Assembly (NCBI GenBank): GCA_016715065.1
Contig: JADKBN010000002.1
Coordinates: 212,286 to 276,285, forward strand
Length of the DNA stretch: 64,000 bases
Direction of reading: 5' to 3'
DNA from: Fibrobacterota bacterium
Lineage (GTDB): Bacteria > Fibrobacterota > Fibrobacteria > UBA5070
Below the pieces are notes generated by a model. That model searched no databases, was not told the origin of the DNA, and was given only the letters and a program-made list of their open reading frames with translations. This document shows positions 18,832 to 28,089 of this stretch, piece by piece (position 1 is the first letter of the stretch; each line of letters starts with the position of its first letter). The position numbers and the translations under genes are program-made.

Positions 18832-20157
18832 TTACCGCAACACCTTCAGCAGGTGTTCCACGTCGTTTCGCAGGGTCACGGAGTCCTTCATTTCCTTGCC
18901 GACCTTGTCGCAAGCGTGGATGACGGTGGAGTGGTCGCGGTCGCCGAAGTGTCCGCCAATGGACTTGTAGGGCAGTTGGGTGAGCTGTTTGGCCAGGTAC
19001 ATGGCCACTTGGCGGGCGTGGCTCACATCCTTGGTGCCGCGGTTTTCGGCAAACAGGCTCGGGGATTCCACACGGTAGTAGTCGGCCACCACCTGGGCGA
19101 TTTCCTGCGGCGAAAACCGACGCGTGGATCCGCGCGGTGCTTGGGCCTCCACCACATCCTGCGCCAGGCGCAAGGTGACGTTGCCGCCCTGGATGCTGGC
19201 CTCCAGGATCAGGCGGCGCACGATGCCTTCCAGGTGGCGGATGTTGGTGTCGATGTTCTCTGCGATGTAGGAGATGATCTCTTCGGAGAGATCCAGGTTT
19301 TCTTCCTGGGCTTTGTTGCGCAAAATGGCTTCGCGGGTGTCTCGGTCGGGCGGCTGGATGTCCACCGAAAGACCCCACTGGAAGCGGCTCACGAGCCGTT
19401 CTTCCAGGCCCTGCAATTCGCCGGGCGAGCAGTCGGAGGTCAGTACGATCTGGCGGTTTGACTGGTGGAAGGCGTTGAACAGATGGAAAAATTCCTGTTG
19501 CAGCGCGTCGCGTCCCACCAAAAACTGGATGTCGTCCATCAACAGCACGTCCACCTGGTTTCGATAGTAGCTGGAGAAATCGTTGACCAGGTTTTTTTGG
19601 ACGTGGTAGATGTACTGGTTCTTGAAGTCGTCGGTGGGAACGTACCGCACCCGGATTTCCGGGAATCGGGTTTCGATCTGGTTGCCGATCGCTTGCAGAA
19701 GGTGGGTCTTGCCCAGTCCGGATCCACCGTAGATCATGAGCGGATTGAAGCGCGTCCGTCCGGGAGCGTCGGCCACCGCTTTGGCAGCCGAATGCGCGAA
19801 CTGCGAGTTGCCACCCACGACGAAGGTATCGAACGTGAAGCGCGGGTTCATCAGCACCGGCGCGATTTCGCCGCCGCGTGGCTCGGGGCTGGCTTGCAGC
19901 ACCGGACGGCTCTGCTGCAGAGATAGCCTAGGTGTGGAGCCCACGGTTTGTTCGGCGGCCATTTCCACCAGGCCCTGGAAACTTTTGCGGAAGGCTTCCA
20001 GAGGGAAGTCGGCGGGAGCCTCCAAAATCAATGAGGTCTGGGAAAATTCCAGGCATCGCAACGGAGCGATTTGGCGCGCATGGACTTCCGGAGCCAACAT
20101 GCGCTGCAGGACTCCCGCGGCCTTCGCCCAGAGGATGGAAGATTCGGACCCGATCAT
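18832..20157 (-). CDS. dnaA: Chromosomal replication initiator protein DnaA
   Basis: Start at MIGSESSILW (ATG 20157); AAA+ motifs GGSGLGKTHLL and LLMDDIQFL; C-terminal DNA-binding helix-turn-helix ...VSHARQVAMYLAKQLT...HSTVIHA. Confidence 0.9.
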   Translation of the reverse strand: MIGSESSILWAKAAGVLQRMLAPEVHARQIAPLRCLEFSQTSLILEAPADFPLEAFRKSFQGLVEMAAEQTVGSTPRLSLQQSRPVLQASPEPRGGEIAPVLMNPRFTFDTFVVGGNSQFAHSAAKAVADAPGRTRFNPLMIYGGSGLGKTHLLQAIGNQIETRFPEIRVRYVPTDDFKNQYIYHVQKNLVNDFSSYYRNQVDVLLMDDIQFLVGRDALQQEFFHLFNAFHQSNRQIVLTSDCSPGELQGLEERLVSRFQWGLSVDIQPPDRDTREAILRNKAQEENLDLSEEIISYIAENIDTNIRHLEGIVRRLILEASIQGGNVTLRLAQDVVEAQAPRGSTRRFSPQEIAQVVADYYRVESPSLFAENRGTKDVSHARQVAMYLAKQLTQLPYKSIGGHFGDRDHSTVIHACDKVGKEMKDSVTLRNDVEHLLKVLR

Positions 20158-20180
20158 GAGATGGAGCGAAACGTAGCCAT

Positions 20181-21785
20181 TTGGAGGATGGGCCAACGGA
20201 AGCGGGTTTGTCTGGGGTGATTGACTCGCGGGATTCCAGGTTGGATACTCAGGGCATTCACCACCCAATCCGGAGAGACCTACGTGAAAAAAACCTTCTG
20301 CTTGCCTCGCTTTTGGGGCTGACTTTCGCAACTTCGGTGCAGTCCGCCAAGCCCTTGGAGCTGTGGATCATGCCCAACGGGGCCAATCCCCAGGCGATCG
20401 TGGAGGAGCGCTTGGCGGCCTTCACCAAAGAAACCGGTTTGCCTGCCAAGGTGGTGGTGCTCGATTGGGGGAGCGCCTGGAACAAGATCGACGAGGGCTT
20501 GAAGACCGGCAAGGGACCGGACGTGGTGCAGTTGGGAACCACTTGGGTTTCCTATTTCGCCTCCCAAGGGTATCTGGCATCGTTGGATGGCCAGGCTCAA
20601 GAGTTGAAATTCGACCGGTTTTTGGGCACCAGCCGAAAAACCACAAAAATCGATGGAAGCGACACAACCTGGGCCGTCCCGTGGTTCATGGATGTGCGCG
20701 TGCTCCTGGCCAACCAGCGGATCCTGGATTCGCTCAAAATCACCGCTGCCGAAGTGGCCACCTGGGATGGCTATCGCAAAGCCTTGCGGAAGATCCGTGA
20801 CGCGAAGTTGCTGAAGGAAGGGGTCACGCCCATCCACGCCTACGGGTTTCCCGGCAAGAGCGACTGGAACATTCCTCACAATTTCGCACCCTGGGTCTGG
20901 TCCGAGGGCGGAGATTTCGTGAAGAAAGGCGCCGATGGCAAATGGTCCTCGGCGCTCATGGACAAGGCCACCGTGCAGGGAATCTACCGCTACATCTCCT
21001 TCGTGAAGGATTCCCTGGTCAACCCCAAGGCGCTTTCGCAGAACACCTCCGACATTTCCAAGCTCTTCAGCGTGGGAGAGCTCGTGTTCATCCTCGGGAC
21101 TTCCGAGCTGGTCACGCAGGTGCGGATTTCCACCGATTCCGGCGGCATGCGCAGTTCCGCCATCGGGAAGGCGGGCATCCGCGTGATCCCCGTTCCGGCG
21201 GGCCCGTCTGGTTCGGTCGCCTTCGTGGGCGGATCCGACCTGGCCCTGCCCAAGGCCAAGGCCAAGGACGCCAACGCCCTCAAACTCCTGCAATTTTTGA
21301 CACGTTCCGACAACCTCGACATCTACACCCGCAAGATCGGGTTCATTCCTGCAGACCAGACCGTGCTCCAGGATTGGGCCAAGGATTCGTCCTACAAGGT
21401 GATCGTCGAGGCCGCCGCCAAGGGCAAGGCATATCCAGGCATCCCCCAGTGGGGTGGCATCGAACAGCAGCTTTCCAGTCTGTTCGCCAACGTATGGGGA
21501 ATGCTGGGTGAAGGCGGCTACTACTCCGACGAAGAGCTCTACAAAGCCTTGGTCCAGTACGATGCCCGCATCGATTCTTCGCTGGGCGCCAAATCGCAAC
21601 CGATGTCGTTGGATTCCTTCAAGGTCGTCGTCGGTCAGATCAAGGAATCCTCCGGCGAGGCGAAGGTGGAAGGTGCCGCTTCCGAAAATTCCGCCGGGGG
21701 CGTTCCCTGGGCGGTGGTGGCGGTCGCAGGAGTGATCGTGCTGGCTGGCGTCGGATTCGCTCTCAGTCGTCGCAAGTCCGCCTAA
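20181..21785 (+). CDS. ABC transporter extracellular solute-binding protein (family 1, sugar/oligosaccharide type)
   Basis: Signal peptide KNLLLASLLGLTFATSVQSA; periplasmic-binding-protein fold motifs; the true start is probably an internal TTG/GTG (20208-20241) because the ORF start at 20181 gives a 38-aa pre-signal extension. Confidence 0.65.
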   Translation: MEDGPTEAGLSGVIDSRDSRLDTQGIHHPIRRDLREKNLLLASLLGLTFATSVQSAKPLELWIMPNGANPQAIVEERLAAFTKETGLPAKVVVLDWGSAWNKIDEGLKTGKGPDVVQLGTTWVSYFASQGYLASLDGQAQELKFDRFLGTSRKTTKIDGSDTTWAVPWFMDVRVLLANQRILDSLKITAAEVATWDGYRKALRKIRDAKLLKEGVTPIHAYGFPGKSDWNIPHNFAPWVWSEGGDFVKKGADGKWSSALMDKATVQGIYRYISFVKDSLVNPKALSQNTSDISKLFSVGELVFILGTSELVTQVRISTDSGGMRSSAIGKAGIRVIPVPAGPSGSVAFVGGSDLALPKAKAKDANALKLLQFLTRSDNLDIYTRKIGFIPADQTVLQDWAKDSSYKVIVEAAAKGKAYPGIPQWGGIEQQLSSLFANVWGMLGEGGYYSDEELYKALVQYDARIDSSLGAKSQPMSLDSFKVVVGQIKESSGEAKVEGAASENSAGGVPWAVVAVAGVIVLAGVGFALSRRKSA

Positions 21786-21807
21786 GCAGTTCGCAAGGAG
21801 TCCCTCG

Positions 21808-24435
21808 ATGGTTCGCAAGATCCCGTTCAAAAGTCGCTTCGTCGTTCGTTTCCTGGCCGCTCTCGTGGCGGTGCAGGTCGCCGCCATGGGGGTTTCCGGC
21901 TGGTACTTCTCCAACCGAGCGGGGAAGGCGGCGGTGGAGAAGGCCTACTCGGCCGACGAATCCACCGTCAAGTCGGTGGCTTCCTACCTGGAGGCGAGCT
22001 TCCGCGGATTTGGACAGGATCTGACGCTCCTTGCGGCGACCCCGGCCATGACCTCGTTCGAGAAGCTCCAAGCGGGCGATTTCATGAAAAACTACACGGT
22101 ATCCTCGCTGTTCGTGTCCGGCGAGGACCTGATCCTCTACGACAAGGACCGAAGGCGCGTCGCCGACAATCGCATGACCGGCGATGCTTCCGACACCTCC
22201 CGCTTCGCCTGGGCCGAACGGGTCGAGGCCATCCGGCCCTTCGTGGGGCCCGTGATCTGGAACGGCGATTCCCCATCAAGGTTGTTCGCCGTGGTGGTCC
22301 AGAACCTCGCCACGGGATCCGGTTACCTGCAGGCCCAGTACTCCATGCGACGCGTGTTCCAATACCTGACCGACACCAGAGTGGGCCAAAAGGGATTCGT
22401 GCTTGTGGTGGACGAAAAGGGGCAGGTTCTGTACCATCCGCAACCCAAGTTCCTGCATGACCGTGCGACCCTGGAAAGCCTGGGGATCAAGGGAGTGCAG
22501 CCGGCCATCTGGAAGATCTCGGCGCCCACCGAATTCGAGCTCGTCGATGGCGAGCGCTACATGGTCAACTACGCATGGATCGCCGACCATCATGTCGGCG
22601 TGGTTTCGCTTCACCCCATGTCAGAAATTGACACAGTTGTCGCCGATACCCGAAACGGCGTGATGGCCCTGATGGGGTTGGTGCTTCTGGCGACGATCCT
22701 CGTTTCGGCCGTGCTGGGGGTCCGCATGGTGGCGCCGCTCAATCTGCTGGCGGGAAAGATGCAGGCGGTGCGCGACGGCGACATGACCGTCGAATCGGGC
22801 ATCAAGAGGCCGGACGAGATCGGATTGCTCGCGGAGGTGTTCGATCTCATGCGCGAGCGGATCCGCCAGTACACCGAGCACCTGGAAGAGCTCGTGGACG
22901 AGAAGATGCGCCAAGTCAGGGACATCCTGGACTCGATCGACCAGGGACTCCTGACGGTGAACCTCGACGGCACCGTGAACCCGGAGCACTCGCGCAAGGC
23001 CAGCTCCATCCTTCATGTGGAGGATCTCGCCAAGTCCGGAGTGCACCAGGCTCTCCACCTATCCGAGGAGGGCCTGACGGATTGGAAGGCCTGGGTGGAT
23101 CTGGTGGTGCAAAAACACATGAGCATGCGGTGGGACAAGCTCGCCAAGGTCGCACCGGTGCGCGAGCTTCAGCTGGGCGATCCAGACGACCCCAAATACG
23201 TCCAGGTGGCATATCAAAAAATGCTCGACAAGCAGGACAAGCTCACCAAGATCATGATCCTCGCTCAGGACGTGACGGAAACGCGCCGCATCGAGCGGAT
23301 CGTGATGGAAGAGAAAGCCCGCCACGAAAACGAGGTCAAGACCATCCTGGGGCTGGTGAACACGTTGCCGGAAGTCCTCCAGGATTATTTCGAGGATCTC
23401 GAACGGCGGATGGTCACCTTGCGCTCCGGGCTGGTGGAATTGCTCGAGGAAGCTCGCCGCGCCCGGGCCGAATTTCCCGAAGGAAGGCCACTTTCGATCG
23501 ACCAGGATCTGGTGGCCTCGGTGTTTCGCGATTTGCACACCATCAAGGGGAACTCCGCCACCTACGGATTCGAAAAACTCACCCACATCGCCCACGAAGC
23601 GGAGGAATTGGTGGAGGCGCTGCGTCCACCCATCGAGGTGCGGTCGGAGGCCACCATCGAGGGTGCTCGCGCCAAACTCGACGAAATGGCCGAGGCGATC
23701 GAGGATATCCGCGCGGTGGGGCGGAAATTGTCAGGCGGCGACGAGTTGGTCCTGCGCATCCCGGAGTCGCGCTTGGAGTCCATCCGCGATCTGGCGCTGG
23801 GTTTGTCGCGGGAGGGAGGCCTTTCCCCGCAGGCCGCGCGCCTGGTCGAGGCTTGCCGGGAAGTCCGCAACATCCCTTTGGCGAGGCTGACCGAAAAATA
23901 CGCGAGCGTGGTGCGCCGCCTGGCCGAGCGGCTGGACAAGCAGGTCCGGTTCCAGACCGTGCCCGCCGATCTGGAGGTGGATCCCCATTTCCTGGGTCGC
24001 TTCGACGAGGCCTTGGTGCACTTGGTGCGCAACGGGGTCGATCACGCCATCGAGCTGCCGGAGGAGCGCGAGGACGCGGGCAAGCCGGCGGAAGGGAGCC
24101 TTCGCTTGAGCGCCAGGATTTCCGCGAGGGAAGTCGAGCTGGTGCTGGAGGACGACGGCAAAGGCATCGATGGCGATCGACTGGTGGCCAAGGCCATCGA
24201 AGCGGGAACGATCCGGGCTCAGGAAGCCGACATGATGTCGTGGCAGCAGAAGATCGAATTGGTTTTCCAGTCTGGTATTTCGACGGCCGCCGAAGTCACC
24301 GAGCTCTCCGGTCGAGGGGTGGGAATGGACGCGGTGATGAGCGGAATCCTCACCATGGGAGGCCGGGTCGAGTTGTGGTCGGAGTTGGGCAAGGGCACGC
24401 GAGTGACCCTTGCGCTGCCCCGAGAGGGGCTCTGA
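21808..24435 (+). CDS. Membrane-bound hybrid sensor kinase with a periplasmic Cache-like sensor, HAMP, an HPt (CheA P1-like) domain and a CheA-type HATPase, lacking a CheW-like P5 domain
   Basis: TM1 FVVRFLAALVAVQVAAMGV, TM2 VMALMGLVLLATILVSAVLGV; HPt motif DLHTIKGNSATYGF; HATPase HLVRNGVDHAIE...GKGID...GRGVGMDAV. Confidence 0.7.
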   Translation: MVRKIPFKSRFVVRFLAALVAVQVAAMGVSGWYFSNRAGKAAVEKAYSADESTVKSVASYLEASFRGFGQDLTLLAATPAMTSFEKLQAGDFMKNYTVSSLFVSGEDLILYDKDRRRVADNRMTGDASDTSRFAWAERVEAIRPFVGPVIWNGDSPSRLFAVVVQNLATGSGYLQAQYSMRRVFQYLTDTRVGQKGFVLVVDEKGQVLYHPQPKFLHDRATLESLGIKGVQPAIWKISAPTEFELVDGERYMVNYAWIADHHVGVVSLHPMSEIDTVVADTRNGVMALMGLVLLATILVSAVLGVRMVAPLNLLAGKMQAVRDGDMTVESGIKRPDEIGLLAEVFDLMRERIRQYTEHLEELVDEKMRQVRDILDSIDQGLLTVNLDGTVNPEHSRKASSILHVEDLAKSGVHQALHLSEEGLTDWKAWVDLVVQKHMSMRWDKLAKVAPVRELQLGDPDDPKYVQVAYQKMLDKQDKLTKIMILAQDVTETRRIERIVMEEKARHENEVKTILGLVNTLPEVLQDYFEDLERRMVTLRSGLVELLEEARRARAEFPEGRPLSIDQDLVASVFRDLHTIKGNSATYGFEKLTHIAHEAEELVEALRPPIEVRSEATIEGARAKLDEMAEAIEDIRAVGRKLSGGDELVLRIPESRLESIRDLALGLSREGGLSPQAARLVEACREVRNIPLARLTEKYASVVRRLAERLDKQVRFQTVPADLEVDPHFLGRFDEALVHLVRNGVDHAIELPEEREDAGKPAEGSLRLSARISAREVELVLEDDGKGIDGDRLVAKAIEAGTIRAQEADMMSWQQKIELVFQSGISTAAEVTELSGRGVGMDAVMSGILTMGGRVELWSELGKGTRVTLALPREGL

Positions 24436-24436
24436 G

Positions 24437-24796
24437 TTACTCGGGCCGCACGCCCATCCGTACGCCCATTTCGATCGATCCGGATGCCTTCAGCGCATGG
24501 GCCGCGAACCCTTGCGCGAGAATTTGCCGGAAGATGTCCTCCACGTCCAACCCCAAGGCGGAGGTTCCGCGGGTGAGAGTGACGCCCGCCTTGTAGGGAC
24601 GCACGGAATGCAGATCTTCGTCCAGCGTGGAGGGAAACTGAAGAGTGGAAAGGTCCGTGCCGGCGATCACCGACATCAGCTTGGAACGGTCCGTACTTGC
24701 GCGGTAGATGTCGATTTCCATGACCTCCGCGGAGGAATCCGCGGGAGGCGCCGAAGAAGCGGGGGCTTCGTTGGATGGCTGAGAATGGATTTTCAT
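24437..24796 (-). CDS. Hypothetical small protein (119 aa)
   Basis: ATG 24796 preceded by an AAGGAA ribosome-binding site; no recognised domain; convergent with and abutting the kinase stop codon. Confidence 0.4.
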   Translation of the reverse strand: MKIHSQPSNEAPASSAPPADSSAEVMEIDIYRASTDRSKLMSVIAGTDLSTLQFPSTLDEDLHSVRPYKAGVTLTRGTSALGLDVEDIFRQILAQGFAAHALKASGSIEMGVRMGVRPE

Positions 24797-24965
24797 GCGG
24801 AAGTTCCTTGGAGAAGGTTCAAGTTGAGGAGTCAGGTGGTTTCGATGGTAGCAACCAGGTCGCAGCTTGGGAGGATTCCTTTGCCACCAAAGGTGGCGGA
24901 ACTCTGCGAGCATTTCAGTGCGAGTCTCCTGAAGGGTCGCTCTGGGGTCAGATCTTCGTGAGCGA

Positions 24966-25997
24966 TCAGCCTTGGGAAAGGCGCAGGGCGATGTAATCCA
25001 CGGCGGCGATCAATTTCGGATAATGCATCCGCGTGGGGCCAAGCACGCCAACGCTCCCCTTGGCATTGCCCAAATGGTAGTTGCGGGTGACCAGGGAAAG
25101 GCTTCGCAGGTGCTCCACCCGGTTTTCCGAACCGATGGTGATGCAAGCGGCACCTTCGTGGCCGATCCGGTCCTGCAGGAGCTGGGCGAGGATGGAGCGG
25201 TCCTCCATGAGCTGGACCAAATTCACCATAGAGCGTCTTTCGCCCATCTCTGGTTGGCTCAGCACGTTCCCCACGCCTTGGAGGTAGGCGTCGTGTGAAC
25301 GGACGGGATGGGAGACCTCCAGCAGGGATCGCAGGATGAGGCCGGTGAGCTTGTCGTGGAGCGGGTCTTCCGCCGGGCGGATTTCGCCGGATTCGATGCT
25401 TTGGAGGTTCCGCTGGAGTTCCTGGGGCGTTCGTCCCAAGGCGGTGAGATGGACCTTCCGGACCAGGTCCGAGAGGTCTTCCCGCGAAAGAGCCGTCCCG
25501 GTGTCAACGGAAATCGAGCGGACCAATCCGGATCCGAAGCTGGCCACCAACAAAAGAGTGGTGTCGGCGACCGGCACCAATTCCAGCCGATCCAACCGGC
25601 TTTGGTCCAACACGGGTGCGATCGCCACGCCCAAGAGTCGTGTGATTTCCGCCAAGGCCAGCGCGGCGGCGGCGAGCAATTGGTCTTCCGATCGAGCGGC
25701 GGAGAGCGTGGCGTCCACCACCATGCGCTCCTGTTCCGAAAGGGATGTGGAAGGCATCATCTGGTCCACCCAGATGCGGAATCCACGTTCCGTAGGTTGT
25801 CTGCCCGCCGAGGTGTGCGGTTGGTCGATCAGCCCCATTTCTTCCATGTCGCTCATCACGTTGCGGATGGTCGCAGGAGAAAGGGCGTCCTCGATGTCCT
25901 TGCTCACCTGCCGGGACCCGACGGGCTCGGCGTTGCCGATGTAGCGGCGCACGATGGACGAGAGAACAGTCCGCTGGCGCTCCGTTAGATGTGGCAT
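24966..25997 (-). CDS. hrcA: Heat-inducible transcription repressor HrcA
   Basis: N-terminal winged helix LTERQRTVLSSIVRRYIGNAEPVGSRQVS; HrcA length and C-terminal domain. Confidence 0.85.
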   Translation of the reverse strand: MPHLTERQRTVLSSIVRRYIGNAEPVGSRQVSKDIEDALSPATIRNVMSDMEEMGLIDQPHTSAGRQPTERGFRIWVDQMMPSTSLSEQERMVVDATLSAARSEDQLLAAAALALAEITRLLGVAIAPVLDQSRLDRLELVPVADTTLLLVASFGSGLVRSISVDTGTALSREDLSDLVRKVHLTALGRTPQELQRNLQSIESGEIRPAEDPLHDKLTGLILRSLLEVSHPVRSHDAYLQGVGNVLSQPEMGERRSMVNLVQLMEDRSILAQLLQDRIGHEGAACITIGSENRVEHLRSLSLVTRNYHLGNAKGSVGVLGPTRMHYPKLIAAVDYIALRLSQG

Positions 25998-26157
25998 GGG
26001 ATCCATGGATCCCTTCGGCAAGGACTCGGACATGGCTCCAATCTACCCTCTTGATCGCCCCAGGCGGTCGTTGTCCGTGCAGGGCTTCGGGAAGTCATGG
26101 CCAAGTCGGGAGACAGTTTGTTTCATTCCTGGCACACTGCCCGTTCAGGAGGTCGAC

Positions 26158-27810
26158 GTGCGTTCGTTCATGACCCTGCTTTTGCCGCTTGCGGCCGCGC
26201 CATACGCTTCGGATATCGTCTATCCGCAGTCGTTTCACTGGAACGGGACCCGGGGCCTCACCCAGACGCGATCCGGAGAGGCGCTGGGAGAAGGAACGAT
26301 GGCGATTTCCGTCCAGGGAAGTTACCACCAGGTGGAGCGGCCGGGTGCACTCCTGAACGGGGCGGATTTCCACGCAAGCACCGTCGGGTTGGGGCTTGGG
26401 GTGTCTGACTGGGCCGATGTTTCCGGCTGGACGAGCTTCTACAACGTCCCGGCCGATTTGGGGGTTTCGACCAACGTGGGATGGGGGGCGTCGGGTGGGC
26501 AGTTGCAATTGACCGCGCCATGGGATACCTCATATTCATTCCGCCTGGCCATCCAGGGGGGATTGGTCACTGGAACCTCCGCGGGCGCGCCGGAAGTTCC
26601 AGTGAGAAAGAATGGACAGATTCTGGCAGACGGGTGGAACTATTTCGAGACTCGCACGGGTTACGATTTCCAGGTCCGTTTGATCCAGACCTTCCGGTGG
26701 GGTTCGGTGAGTTTTCCCGTGCGGATCCATTTGAACGAGGGCATGAACCATTCCATCCAACCCGGCACGGAGGATCTCGCGCTGTTGGATGCGGCGTTGG
26801 AGTTGGATCCCCACCCCATCCTGAGCATCGGCTTCGAAGGCCATTCCAGGACGCGACTCGATGCCATGGATCTGGGCGAGCGCACCTGGGCGACCGGATC
26901 GCTCACGTTCCATCTTCCCGCCGAAGTCCAGTTGTTCGCCGGGGTGGATGTCCGCGCCTGGGGCGAGCGCAAGGAAGCGGCGGTCGCCGTTCCTGGAGAG
27001 CCACAGCCGGTCGCTTTCCGAAACACGATGGATCCTTGGAGGGCCTTCTACGGCTTGTCGGTCCCCTTCGATCTGGCTGCTTCCGTCAAGCGAGATCGTG
27101 CCGACATCCGGCGCAACGATTCCCTGGAACGGCTGGCGCTGCGGGGGAAGGTGGTCGACTGCGAAGCCCAGGGGGTGAAGCTCGGACAGCGCATCGACAG
27201 CTTGCGCGGCGCCGTGCGCGAAGCGCAATTGGCCAAGGACTCGCTGATGTACAAGTCCAAGCTCGATTCGATCGCGGTGGACAATTGCCGTCACAACGCG
27301 AAAAACCAGGTGGCCCGCATGAACGACAGCCTCGCCCGCCGGTCCAGCCAGGACTCCTTGGCGCTGGCCGATGCGCGTCGCCAGATCGAGGAGGAACGTC
27401 TCAAGCGCGGAGACCTGGAGGCATCCTTCCTCAAAACAGGCATGATGAACCTGGATGCGGTCTATTTCGAGCTGGGCAAGGCGACCATCACCGCATCCTC
27501 CCGCCCCTACCTGAACCTGATCGGAGCGATCCTGGTCAAGTACCCCAAACTTCGCTTCGAGGTGGGTGGGCACACCGACAACCAGGGCAAGCCCGGCACC
27601 AACCTCAAGCTTTCCCAATCCCGCGCCCAGGCGGTCAAGAAATACCTCGCGGGTCTCCACCCGGAACTCGGATCGACGGTCTCGGCCAAAGGCTACGGTG
27701 ACACCAAGCCCAAGGCGACCAACAAGTCTGCCGAAGGACGCGAGATGAATCGACGGGTGGAGATCGTGGTGACCAACCTCGAAGCCCTGAAGGAATACGC
27801 CAAGCCGTAA
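26158..27810 (+). CDS. OmpA-family outer-membrane protein with a central coiled coil
   Basis: AGGAGG ribosome-binding site then GTG 26158 (VRSFMTLLLPLAAA signal peptide); C-terminal OmpA domain LDAVYFELGKATI...GHTDNQG...NRRVEI. Confidence 0.75.
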   Translation: MRSFMTLLLPLAAAPYASDIVYPQSFHWNGTRGLTQTRSGEALGEGTMAISVQGSYHQVERPGALLNGADFHASTVGLGLGVSDWADVSGWTSFYNVPADLGVSTNVGWGASGGQLQLTAPWDTSYSFRLAIQGGLVTGTSAGAPEVPVRKNGQILADGWNYFETRTGYDFQVRLIQTFRWGSVSFPVRIHLNEGMNHSIQPGTEDLALLDAALELDPHPILSIGFEGHSRTRLDAMDLGERTWATGSLTFHLPAEVQLFAGVDVRAWGERKEAAVAVPGEPQPVAFRNTMDPWRAFYGLSVPFDLAASVKRDRADIRRNDSLERLALRGKVVDCEAQGVKLGQRIDSLRGAVREAQLAKDSLMYKSKLDSIAVDNCRHNAKNQVARMNDSLARRSSQDSLALADARRQIEEERLKRGDLEASFLKTGMMNLDAVYFELGKATITASSRPYLNLIGAILVKYPKLRFEVGGHTDNQGKPGTNLKLSQSRAQAVKKYLAGLHPELGSTVSAKGYGDTKPKATNKSAEGREMNRRVEIVVTNLEALKEYAKP

Positions 27811-27842
27811 TCCTTGCTCCCGCGCGAAGGTGTTCCAAGGCT

Positions 27843-27880
27843 GGAGGACGTGATCGTCCGCCAGCCTTTTTTCGATTCCT
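27843..27880 (+). terminator. Rho-independent terminator after the OmpA-family gene
   Basis: GGCTGGAGGACGTGATCGTCCGCCAGCC followed by TTTTTT. Confidence 0.55.
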
Positions 27881-28089
27881 CGGAGGGAATGGAAAGGCAG
27901 GGGTCCCGGGCGGGTCTGACATTTTGTCAGGGCAATTTTTGGAAAGCAGCCAGAATGGGAATGGTCGAAACCTTACACTCGGAAGGAACGTCGGACCTGG
28001 AGCCACCCTAGAGATCGCATCCCTTCAATTGGACCATCGTGGTTAGGGAGGTGCCCGCCTGGACCGATGTTCGTTCGAGGGATGGCCCG

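Follow-up and report, generated by a model that had tools for sequence, protein, structure and literature searches.

The stretch of DNA analysed here (the window; 64 kb of contig JADKBN010000002.1 of the Fibrobacterota bacterium assembly GCA_016715065.1, with a GC content of about 62%) contains two adjacent genes that are the subject of this work, one encoding a solute-binding protein (SBP) and the other an 875-aa membrane sensor kinase with a catalytic part related to that of the chemotaxis kinase CheA. The order of genes at the locus is radical SAM/SPASM (−), dnaA (−), SBP (+), kinase (+), a 119-aa gene (−), hrcA (−) and an OmpA-family gene (Table 1); close homologues of the studied genes all come from Fibrobacteria/Fibrobacterota metagenome-assembled genomes. 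The SBP–kinase gene pair had been proposed in an earlier note made from the sequence alone, and it is present where that note had placed it, with a gap of 22 nt containing AAGGAG; the two genes are likely to be co-transcribed.

Table 1. Features of the SBP–kinase locus and its surroundings (positions are those of the window; residue numbers are those of the kinase).
Feature	Position	Strand	Basis or remark
dnaA	18832 to ~20160	−	Real ATG at ~20160; N-terminus aligns with L007, L049 and L051 from MIGSESS
Short divergent intergenic region, dnaA/SBP gene	20161–20240		Must carry the promoters of both genes
SBP + kinase cassette, 4.27 kb	20182–24452		Absent from otherwise syntenic Fibrobacteria genomes
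Family-1 SBP, likely beta-glucoside/cellodextrin-type binder, membrane-tethered	20241–21785	+	Pfam and PDB matches
SBP signal peptide (..LLLASLLGLTFATSVQSA, cut before KP)	20241–20348	+	Alignment of orthologues and DNA sequence
SBP C-terminal membrane anchor (VPWAVVAVAGVIVLAGVGFALS, then RRKSA tail)	21702–21782	+	Translation; conserved in orthologues
Spacer, SBP stop to kinase ATG	21786–21807	+	22 nt, AAGGAG; sequence
Sensor kinase, 875 aa: TM1, dCache, TM2, HAMP, PAS-like, P1, short P3, P4	21808–24435	+	
First transmembrane helix TM1 (8–35), periplasmic dCache (~36–270), second transmembrane helix TM2 (271–299)	21829–22704	+	AlphaFold model mfda79ca984f8 and Foldseek
HAMP (residues ~300–356)	22705–22875	+	Pfam 306–354, E 2e-10; PDB matches to HtrII HAMP
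PAS-like domain (residues ~375–490), ends in D488-x-T490 ('DIT')	22930–23277	+	AlphaFold, predicted local distance difference test (pLDDT) 83–91
CheA-type P1 (Hpt) four-helix bundle	23365–23730	+	Pfam Hpt 522–631; hhalign to CheA P1
Short P3-like helical segment (residues ~646–690)	23743–23877	+	hhalign, Foldseek
CheA-type P4 ATP-binding domain, N, G1 and G2 boxes intact	23878–24426	+	Matches to CheA P4 structures
119-aa conserved hypothetical gene, convergent	24437–24796	−	hrcA–119aa–dnaA neighbourhood
hrcA	24966–26033	−	

Pfam searches, AlphaFold modelling and Foldseek comparisons support the architecture which the note had read in the kinase, namely a membrane sensor, HAMP, a CheA-type P1 and ATPase, and no P5 domain. 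The Pfam scan revealed HAMP (306–354), Hpt (522–631) and HATPase_c (735–873), as well as dCache_1 at 51–258 with a score (37 bits, E 3e-9) below the 45-bit cut-off, which is exceeded in the homologue P0046 (57 bits); CheW, HisKA and H-kinase_dim were not found, so that the presence of Hpt and the absence of HisKA are the reverse of what a conventional HisKA kinase without an HPt domain would give. NCBIfam CheA models match the kinase in the P4 part only. The domain list of the note was correct as far as it went, and had overlooked the PAS-like domain and the short P3-like segment.

In the full-length AlphaFold model, confidence is high from about residue 380 on, and the periplasmic domain is uninformative (pLDDT below 50); residues 1–300, modelled separately with a deeper alignment, reached a pLDDT of 87.8. 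In this second model, two PAS-like alpha/beta modules come after a long N-terminal helix, all between two transmembrane helices, and the fold resembles the solved dCache domains of Mlp24, Mlp37, PscC, PctA and DctB (Foldseek TM-score 0.6–0.75). The full-length model comprises, in order, the PAS-like domain (381–488), a helix (490–518), the Hpt bundle, the second helix of which carries His577, two short helices (653–684) and the P4 fold; the PAS-like domain, at the position of which Pfam PAS_4 is found in the homologous protein of L032, runs through the continuous helix 490–518 into P1.

Comparisons with experimentally determined structures clearly indicate the origin of the catalytic part. Residues 666–871 match the CheA P4 structures of E. 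coli and T. maritima (E 1e-40), while residues 561–610 show a weak match to CheA P1 structures; Foldseek superimposes P4 on CheA P4 structures with a TM-score of up to 0.88 and 38–41% identity, and aligns 246 columns with the T. maritima P3P4 structure 4xiv. When profiles of 25 family members and of 19 canonical CheAs were compared by hhalign, one collinear match was obtained (probability 100%, E 1e-59), which passes through P1, a gap at the position of CheA P2, the P3 start motif, on which LVLRIPESRLESIRDLA falls, and P4, and stops exactly where P5 begins. The modelled P3-like helices (653–669 and 674–684) are shorter than canonical P3, H-kinase_dim being undetected by Pfam. The kinase has neither P2 nor P5; as the note had stated, it ends right after the ATPase, four residues past P4 and with no CheW domain, and 24 close homologues end likewise.

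The residues expected of a CheA-type phosphotransfer are nearly invariant in an alignment of 137 P5-less relatives. The motif HTIKGN (23536–23553, residues 577–582) contains the phospho-acceptor His577 (codon 23536–23538; E. coli CheA His48), kept in 136/137 sequences, and Lys580 (CheA Lys51; 135/137), with Gly581 as a further conserved partner of His577; Glu599, located 22 residues past His577 as Glu70 is past His48 in E. coli CheA, is kept in all 137. The ATP-binding residues of the N, G1 and G2 boxes (H738, N742, H746, D782, G784, G786, G835, G837 and G839) are each present in 134–137 of the 137 sequences. At the junction of the PAS domain and the following helix, Asp488 (136/137) and Thr490 (131/137) of the DIT motif are conserved to a similar degree, and this near-invariant Asp488-x-Thr490 suggests that this helix couples the sensor rigidly to P1.

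It might be supposed that the Hpt domain is not the site of autophosphorylation, and that the protein is an intermediate or sink of a phosphorelay or uses His506 as a cryptic DHp-like site. His506 lies on the helix that links PAS to the bundle (RHENEVK) and is invariant in the 25 closest members, which speaks for such a role, but the wider family keeps it in just 58/137 sequences, far fewer than His577 or Glu599, and on this ground it was rejected as a cryptic H-box. With no HisKA family match in Pfam and all ATP-binding boxes intact, this explanation is highly improbable.

The kinase belongs to a large family, of which a word-indexed search recovered 24 clusters that end in this P5-less manner. 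An exhaustive HMMER search over 1.84 billion representatives gave 43,246 matches, mostly to ordinary P4 domains of CheA. Of the 150 best clusters among these matches, about 130 align in one stretch from HAMP/PAS to the end of P4 and stop there; the family contains at least ~130 protein clusters (defined at 50% identity). A local scan with domain hidden Markov models (HMMs) confirmed the order of two transmembrane helices, HAMP, PAS, P1, P3P4 and end for most of the best clusters. A P5 HMM built from canonical CheAs detected P5 in six canonical CheAs (controls, low-ranking among the matches) and in none of ~160 family members. The family is found in Fibrobacterota, Myxococcota and Planctomycetota, and members with names come from Chitinispirillum, from Planctomycetota, from numerous Fibrobacterota genomes and, among the Myxococcota, for instance from Polyangiaceae and Archangium. 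In public annotations the proteins appear as 'HAMP domain-containing protein', 'Hpt domain-containing protein' or 'CheA'.

The input modules vary within the family and include dCache, sCache-like and other periplasmic domains. In L016 (6588–9590), a protein of 1001 aa carries an N-terminal LacI-type binding-protein domain (Peripla_BP_1/3/4) fused to the Hpt–P4 core, i.e., a binding protein and a kinase in one chain. Soluble paralogues with an N-terminal CheX-like domain followed by PAS-Hpt-P4 are encoded in L017 (2017–4134), L012 (3651–5780), L015 (3080–5635) and L019 (7500–9524); the CheX domain was assigned by Pfam (33 bits, above the cut-off) for the L017 paralogue only, and by jackhmmer CheX matches for the other three. 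In the protein P0085 (4858 aa), two transmembrane helices, HAMP and PAS are separated from a single P3P4 core by about 22 Hpt-like repeats in tandem. The uncharacterised Fibrobacter-type HAMP-PAS-Hpt-P4 kinases of about 800 aa (P0006–P0024) are 41–48% identical to the window kinase from HAMP to the C-terminus and have the same P5-less end; they differ in a shorter, unrelated periplasmic domain and in their gene neighbours, which encode a CheX-like protein, a receiver-only regulator and two signal-peptide proteins (~235 and ~322 aa). One metagenome-assembled genome holds both the 875-aa type (L010) and the 800-aa type (L013), and the two types are therefore paralogues, which may share a regulator.

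CheA is the textbook exception among histidine kinases, being described as sensor-less and always coupled to receptors. A 2023 survey by Berry, Andrianova and Zhulin states that CheA lacks an input or sensor domain, defines its core as P1+P3+P4+P5 and reports a CheW-like P5 in 100% of 13,673 CheAs, which were drawn from genomes in MiST and identified and classified with MiST (PMC10782961). By our own reading, which the survey does not state, this identification may depend on the CheW-like domain; if it does, P5-less kinases would not have been collected. The kinase of the window shares with the CheAs of E. coli and T. maritima, which are histidine kinases of class II, the P1 HxxKG motif with its +22 Glu, the beginning of P3 and all of P4, homologous and collinear throughout, and its likely substrate is, as for CheA, a CheY-like single-domain regulator with a CheX phosphatase. 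It differs in the absence of P5 and P2, in possessing its own transmembrane dCache-HAMP-PAS input, and in the connection between P1 and the sensor, which is a continuous helix, whereas P1 of CheA is held on a flexible tether. The kinase is predicted to work like CheA at the phosphotransfer step, but fails two of the features that define CheA, P5 being absent and a sensor of its own being present. Unlike classical HisKA/DHp sensor kinases, it has no HisKA match, and its ATPase is of the CheA type rather than of class I; we rate it as a variant among the class II CheA-type kinases.

The CheA-derived P1, P3 and P4 regions, together with the fact that one Fibrobacter-type locus (L003) adjoins a che-like cluster, could be taken to mean that the protein is a conventional chemotaxis CheA which works in a chemoreceptor array by way of a separately encoded CheW or P5-like protein. 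Such a role can scarcely be credited, given that P5 is missing from this kinase and from about 130 related clusters, that the kinase has its own transmembrane sensor, HAMP and PAS, and that most related loci have no CheW or MCP (methyl-accepting chemotaxis protein) nearby. Searches of the 64-kb window with CheW, CheR, MCP, STAS and Hpt queries matched only the kinase itself. The claim of the note that no chemotaxis genes lie nearby accordingly holds for CheW, CheR, MCP and receiver genes in the window, and its description of the system as chemotaxis-independent is supported, in the sense of independence from receptors and CheW arrays, by the lack of P5, the kinase's own sensor and the absence of che genes from the window.

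The SBP open reading frame (ORF; 20181–21785, +) matches Pfam SBP_bac_8 (E 1e-24) and SBP_bac_1 (E 5e-23). Its start codon is likely TTG 20241, which is favoured because of the alignment with orthologues and gives a plausible long signal peptide. ATG, GTG or TTG is missing at the position where the orthologues start, and the public gene call P0202 (identical protein, 471 aa), with its start at TTG 20310, would lack the greater part of the signal peptide. The orthologues have in common a signal peptide and a C-terminal hydrophobic helix with a basic tail; among 103 SBP homologue clusters, this anchor is present in about 88 of the approximately 90 Fibrobacterota clade members of ~500 aa and absent from distant ordinary SBPs of ~430–460 aa.

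The mature SBP is similar over the whole fold (residues 1–397 of the mature protein, E 1e-65) to the T. thermophilus sugar SBP 7c63, which we take to be the Thermus beta-glucosides-binding protein, and it is also similar to CbpB of C. thermocellum (7x0i, E 4e-50). The Thermus beta-glucosides-binding protein binds beta-linked gluco-oligosaccharides of 2–5 units, a description with which this identification agrees, and the ligands of CbpB are cellodextrins, of which cellotetraose is the best, and laminaribiose (PMC9601137). Because of the approximately 40% similarity to the Thermus SBP over the whole fold and the similarity to CbpB, it is plausible that the ligand is a beta-glucan oligosaccharide, e.g., a cellodextrin or a laminari-oligosaccharide, in this cellulolytic phylum.

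The co-occurrence of the SBP and the kinase in relatives, a check which the note had proposed, was found in L001, L007, L008 and L057. All four SBP homologues that were sampled in addition (44–57% identity) are followed, 3–18 nt downstream, by a gene for a dCache-HAMP-GGDEF protein. The sensors of these proteins are homologous to that of the kinase, residues 1–359 of which align without gaps with the N-terminus of the L054 protein (40% identity, E 2e-82); the identity to the L052 sensor is lower (29%, E 7e-51). In all the loci examined, the partner of the SBP is a dCache-HAMP signal transducer with either a CheA-like core or GGDEF as its output. The proteins P0122 and P0161 contain the same dCache-HAMP sensor (about 29–32% identical over residues 1–370) joined to a SpoIIE/PP2C phosphatase output. 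The outputs of this sensor are thus of three types: CheA-like core, GGDEF and SpoIIE/PP2C.

Since the same SBP/sensor combination pairs with GGDEF and the sensor is also found with SpoIIE, what is conserved as a unit is the anchored SBP together with its dCache-HAMP sensor, to which different outputs can be joined. The uncharacterised Fibrobacterota pairs of an SBP and a dCache-HAMP-GGDEF protein (L052–L056) are like the pair of the window in the SBP clade (44–57% identical), the anchor, the sensor (29–40% identical over 1–359), the gene order and the spacing, and differ in that a diguanylate cyclase output replaces the PAS-P1-P3-P4 kinase core. The kinase gene itself looks like a domain chimera of two lineages; residues 1–359 would derive from the lineage of SBP-coupled dCache-HAMP sensors, the usual output of which in Fibrobacterota is GGDEF, and residues from ~300 to 875 from the widespread HAMP-PAS-P1-P3-P4 kinase family.

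The note had described the system as transporter-coupled, which would mean that the SBP belongs to an ATP-binding cassette (ABC) importer and that the kinase reports transport activity. By sequence, the SBP is indeed a bona fide family-1 ABC-type binding protein, and its closest solved relatives serve ABC importers. However, no ABC permease or ATPase gene adjoins the SBP gene in the window or in about ten related contexts, a motif scan found no ORF with both Walker A and LSGGQ in the 64 kb, the C-terminal anchor is specific to the clade and absent from transporter-type relatives, and the SBP is paired with dCache-HAMP proteins. This part of the note could not be upheld, and coupling to a transporter is very unlikely. 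The SBP is better read as a dedicated co-sensor, because ABC genes are absent nearby, the protein has its own anchor and its pairing with dCache-HAMP is constant.

A different division of labour, in which the dCache domain senses a small ligand directly and the SBP captures substrate at the membrane, feeds an importer encoded elsewhere or merely modulates the sensor, is unlikely, though by no means negligible. Solved dCache domains similar to the model (Mlp24, PctA, DctB and Tlp3) bind their ligands directly, as this explanation would have it. What argues for the SBP as a co-sensor instead is that the anchored SBP clade and the homologous dCache-HAMP sensor remain paired over a range from about 30% to 93% identity, that this pairing spans at least two output types with gaps of 3–40 nt or divergent adjacency, and that the anchor holds the SBP at the membrane.

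A search for the cognate response regulator, also proposed in the note, gave nothing in the 64-kb window, where phmmer and jackhmmer runs with queries from related loci found neither a receiver regulator nor CheX; in relatives, a regulator of this kind adjoins the kinase gene. At least 14 Fibrobacterota loci contain, in varying order, a gene for an ~800-aa kinase with a CheX-like gene, a receiver-only regulator and the ~235-aa and ~322-aa signal-peptide proteins, and in Myxococcota a receiver-only regulator is located directly downstream of the kinase. In L001, which encodes an orthologue 64% identical to the window kinase, a convergent CheX gene (above the Pfam cut-off) lies downstream. In L057, an anchored SBP encoded divergently accompanies the kinase P0068 (28% identical over the full length), with a receiver-only regulator 59 nt downstream which is 50–56% identical to the regulators of the Fibrobacter operons and 31% identical to a CheY of a che cluster. 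Because receiver-only regulators and CheX adjoin the kinases in relatives, the substrate of the kinase is likely a specific family of CheY-like regulators that is reset by CheX. The term phosphorelay used in the note is probably too strong; the loci of relatives indicate a simple transfer from His577 to Asp of a stand-alone CheY-like regulator.

Neither the 235-aa nor the 322-aa operon protein has Pfam matches; the profile of the 235-aa family found nothing in the PDB, and that of the 322-aa family found a weak match (E 0.06) to an 'ABC-type periplasmic component-like' domain. In L003 (1–7276), the kinase module stands beside a che-like cluster that encodes CheR, a receiver, HDOD, a stand-alone Hpt, receiver-SpoIIE, STAS, a CheA-CheW-receiver hybrid and CheW; this cluster looks like an 'alternative cellular function' pathway that feeds a partner-switching module.

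The reading that we favour, with a probability of about 60%, is that the two genes form an SBP-dependent sensing module, the histidine kinase of which derives from CheA and works independently of receptors. The periplasmic family-1 SBP, held at the inner membrane by its own anchor, would bind a beta-glucan oligosaccharide and, when loaded, dock on the periplasmic dCache domain of the kinase. The signal would then pass through TM2, HAMP, PAS (with its DIT junction) and the continuous helix to P1, and would set the efficiency with which P4 phosphorylates His577; from there, the phosphoryl group would be transferred to a stand-alone CheY-like response regulator, presumably encoded elsewhere in this genome, and a CheX-type phosphatase would reset the signal.

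Several points weigh against this scheme. The contact between the SBP and the dCache domain is one that we infer, and dCache domains usually bind small ligands themselves; the predicted ligand rests on a similarity of about 40%, and the start codon of the SBP is not obvious. The kinase activity and the role of His577 as the phospho-site are predictions, the P3-like segment is short and escapes Pfam, and the mode of dimerisation is uncertain. Finally, the cognate regulator is assigned from relatives and paralogues, as receiver and CheX genes are absent from the window.

Parts of this arrangement have parallels in well-known systems. In the Vibrio autoinducer-2 sensor LuxP–LuxQ, a periplasmic binding protein is encoded beside a kinase with a tandem PAS/dCache-like periplasmic part; LuxP is a soluble type-I binding protein and a co-sensor that presents the ligand, and LuxQ is a classical HisKA hybrid kinase. 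By analogy, the pair of the window may follow the same LuxPQ/TorTS-type logic, since the gene of the binding protein adjoins the sensor gene and is conserved together with it; the differences are the CheA-type kinase core and an SBP of family 1 (MalE-like) with its own membrane anchor. In maltose taxis (MalE–Tar–CheW–CheA), the binding protein, once loaded with sugar, signals the presence of an oligosaccharide to a membrane transducer that ultimately controls CheA, and Vibrio ChiS with the chitin-oligosaccharide binding protein links the breakdown products of a polysaccharide to signalling. The binding proteins of E. coli (MalE) and Vibrio also serve ABC importers, whereas the SBP of the window has no associated importer, and the four E. 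coli proteins (SBP, MCP, CheW and CheA) are matched here by apparently two.

The SBP and kinase genes form a discrete cassette. In a blastn comparison of positions 16000–28000 of the window with L049, the flanks OmpA-HrcA-119aa and dnaA-radical SAM are 80–82% identical, and the cassette corresponds to only 66 nt (L049 8350–8416); the order in L049–L051 is OmpA, HrcA, a 121-aa gene, DnaA and radical SAM, with neither the SBP nor the kinase gene in between. Because the flanks are so similar while the counterpart of the 4.27 kb is only 66 nt long, the SBP–kinase pair is a discrete insertion or deletion. The left edge of the cassette lies upstream of dnaA, about 22 nt from its start codon, and dnaA therefore has a wholly different upstream region depending on whether a genome carries the cassette. 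A search for flanking repeats or mobile-element signatures gave nothing beyond short repeats at chance level. Promoter and terminator scans around it gave nothing above shuffled expectation, and the single sigma-70-like match in the dnaA/SBP intergenic region (20221–20249) is likewise not above chance.

The convergent 119-aa gene abuts the kinase, as the note had said, with 1 nt between its stop codon (24437–24439) and that of the kinase (24433–24435). The same note had called the gene an orphan; its convergent position was given correctly, but it is not a singleton, having seven homologue clusters, exclusively in Fibrobacteria, and differing from its counterpart in L007 by 44 synonymous and 28 non-synonymous codons. 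Since it sits between hrcA and dnaA in the cassette-free genomes L049–L051, it is a neighbour unrelated to the sensing module; as a candidate for a CheX-like or other functional partner, it was rejected in view of this synteny and the lack of any Pfam match or similarity to CheX.

Further genes of the window belong to the same neighbourhood or lie at some distance. A membrane protein (16810–18420, −), probably of ~320 aa as in L007 and L049 and with a Cys/Gly-rich tail end (...SGCGGGSSDSGCGGGSSGGDSGCGGGGGGCGGCGGGGD), adjoins 17804–19378 (−) and is located directly downstream of the radical SAM/SPASM gene and dnaA. The order of this gene, radical SAM/SPASM and dnaA is kept in L007 and L049–L051, and the protein may be a substrate of the SPASM maturase. 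At 31260–34563 (−), a fused BioD-BioA gene (AAA_26 + Aminotran_3, 668 aa) stands beside a gene for a BioF-like aminotransferase; these are genes of ordinary biotin synthesis, conserved in syntenic relatives.

Full-text searches, over literature the searchable part of which is partial, found no published description of a P5-less, sensor-fused CheA-like kinase. A broader and more tentative proposal, which we would put somewhat below even odds, joins the observations as follows: the family would be an unrecognised, widespread class of histidine kinases in which a CheA core (P1-P3-P4) is gated directly by a fused transmembrane sensor via a rigid link from PAS through the helix to P1, without any part played by a chemoreceptor, CheW or P5. 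Such a class could be either a missing link between sensor kinases and the array kinase or the product of repeated escapes from the array; in the present case, a tethered cellodextrin-type SBP would drive a CheY/CheX circuit. If so, the detection of cellulose breakdown products would be coupled to a fast, resettable behavioural or adhesive response.

The family keeps the phosphotransfer chemistry of CheA and exchanges the layer of receptor, CheW and P5 for a fused sensor, which makes it a simple system for the gating between P1 and P4, and it bears on the evolution of the chemotaxis array kinase. The anchored SBP and dCache-HAMP input, which recurs with both kinase and cyclase outputs, offers a clean natural case of modular rewiring and, if the ligand is a cellodextrin, the module hints at how the cellulolytic Fibrobacterota sense their substrate.

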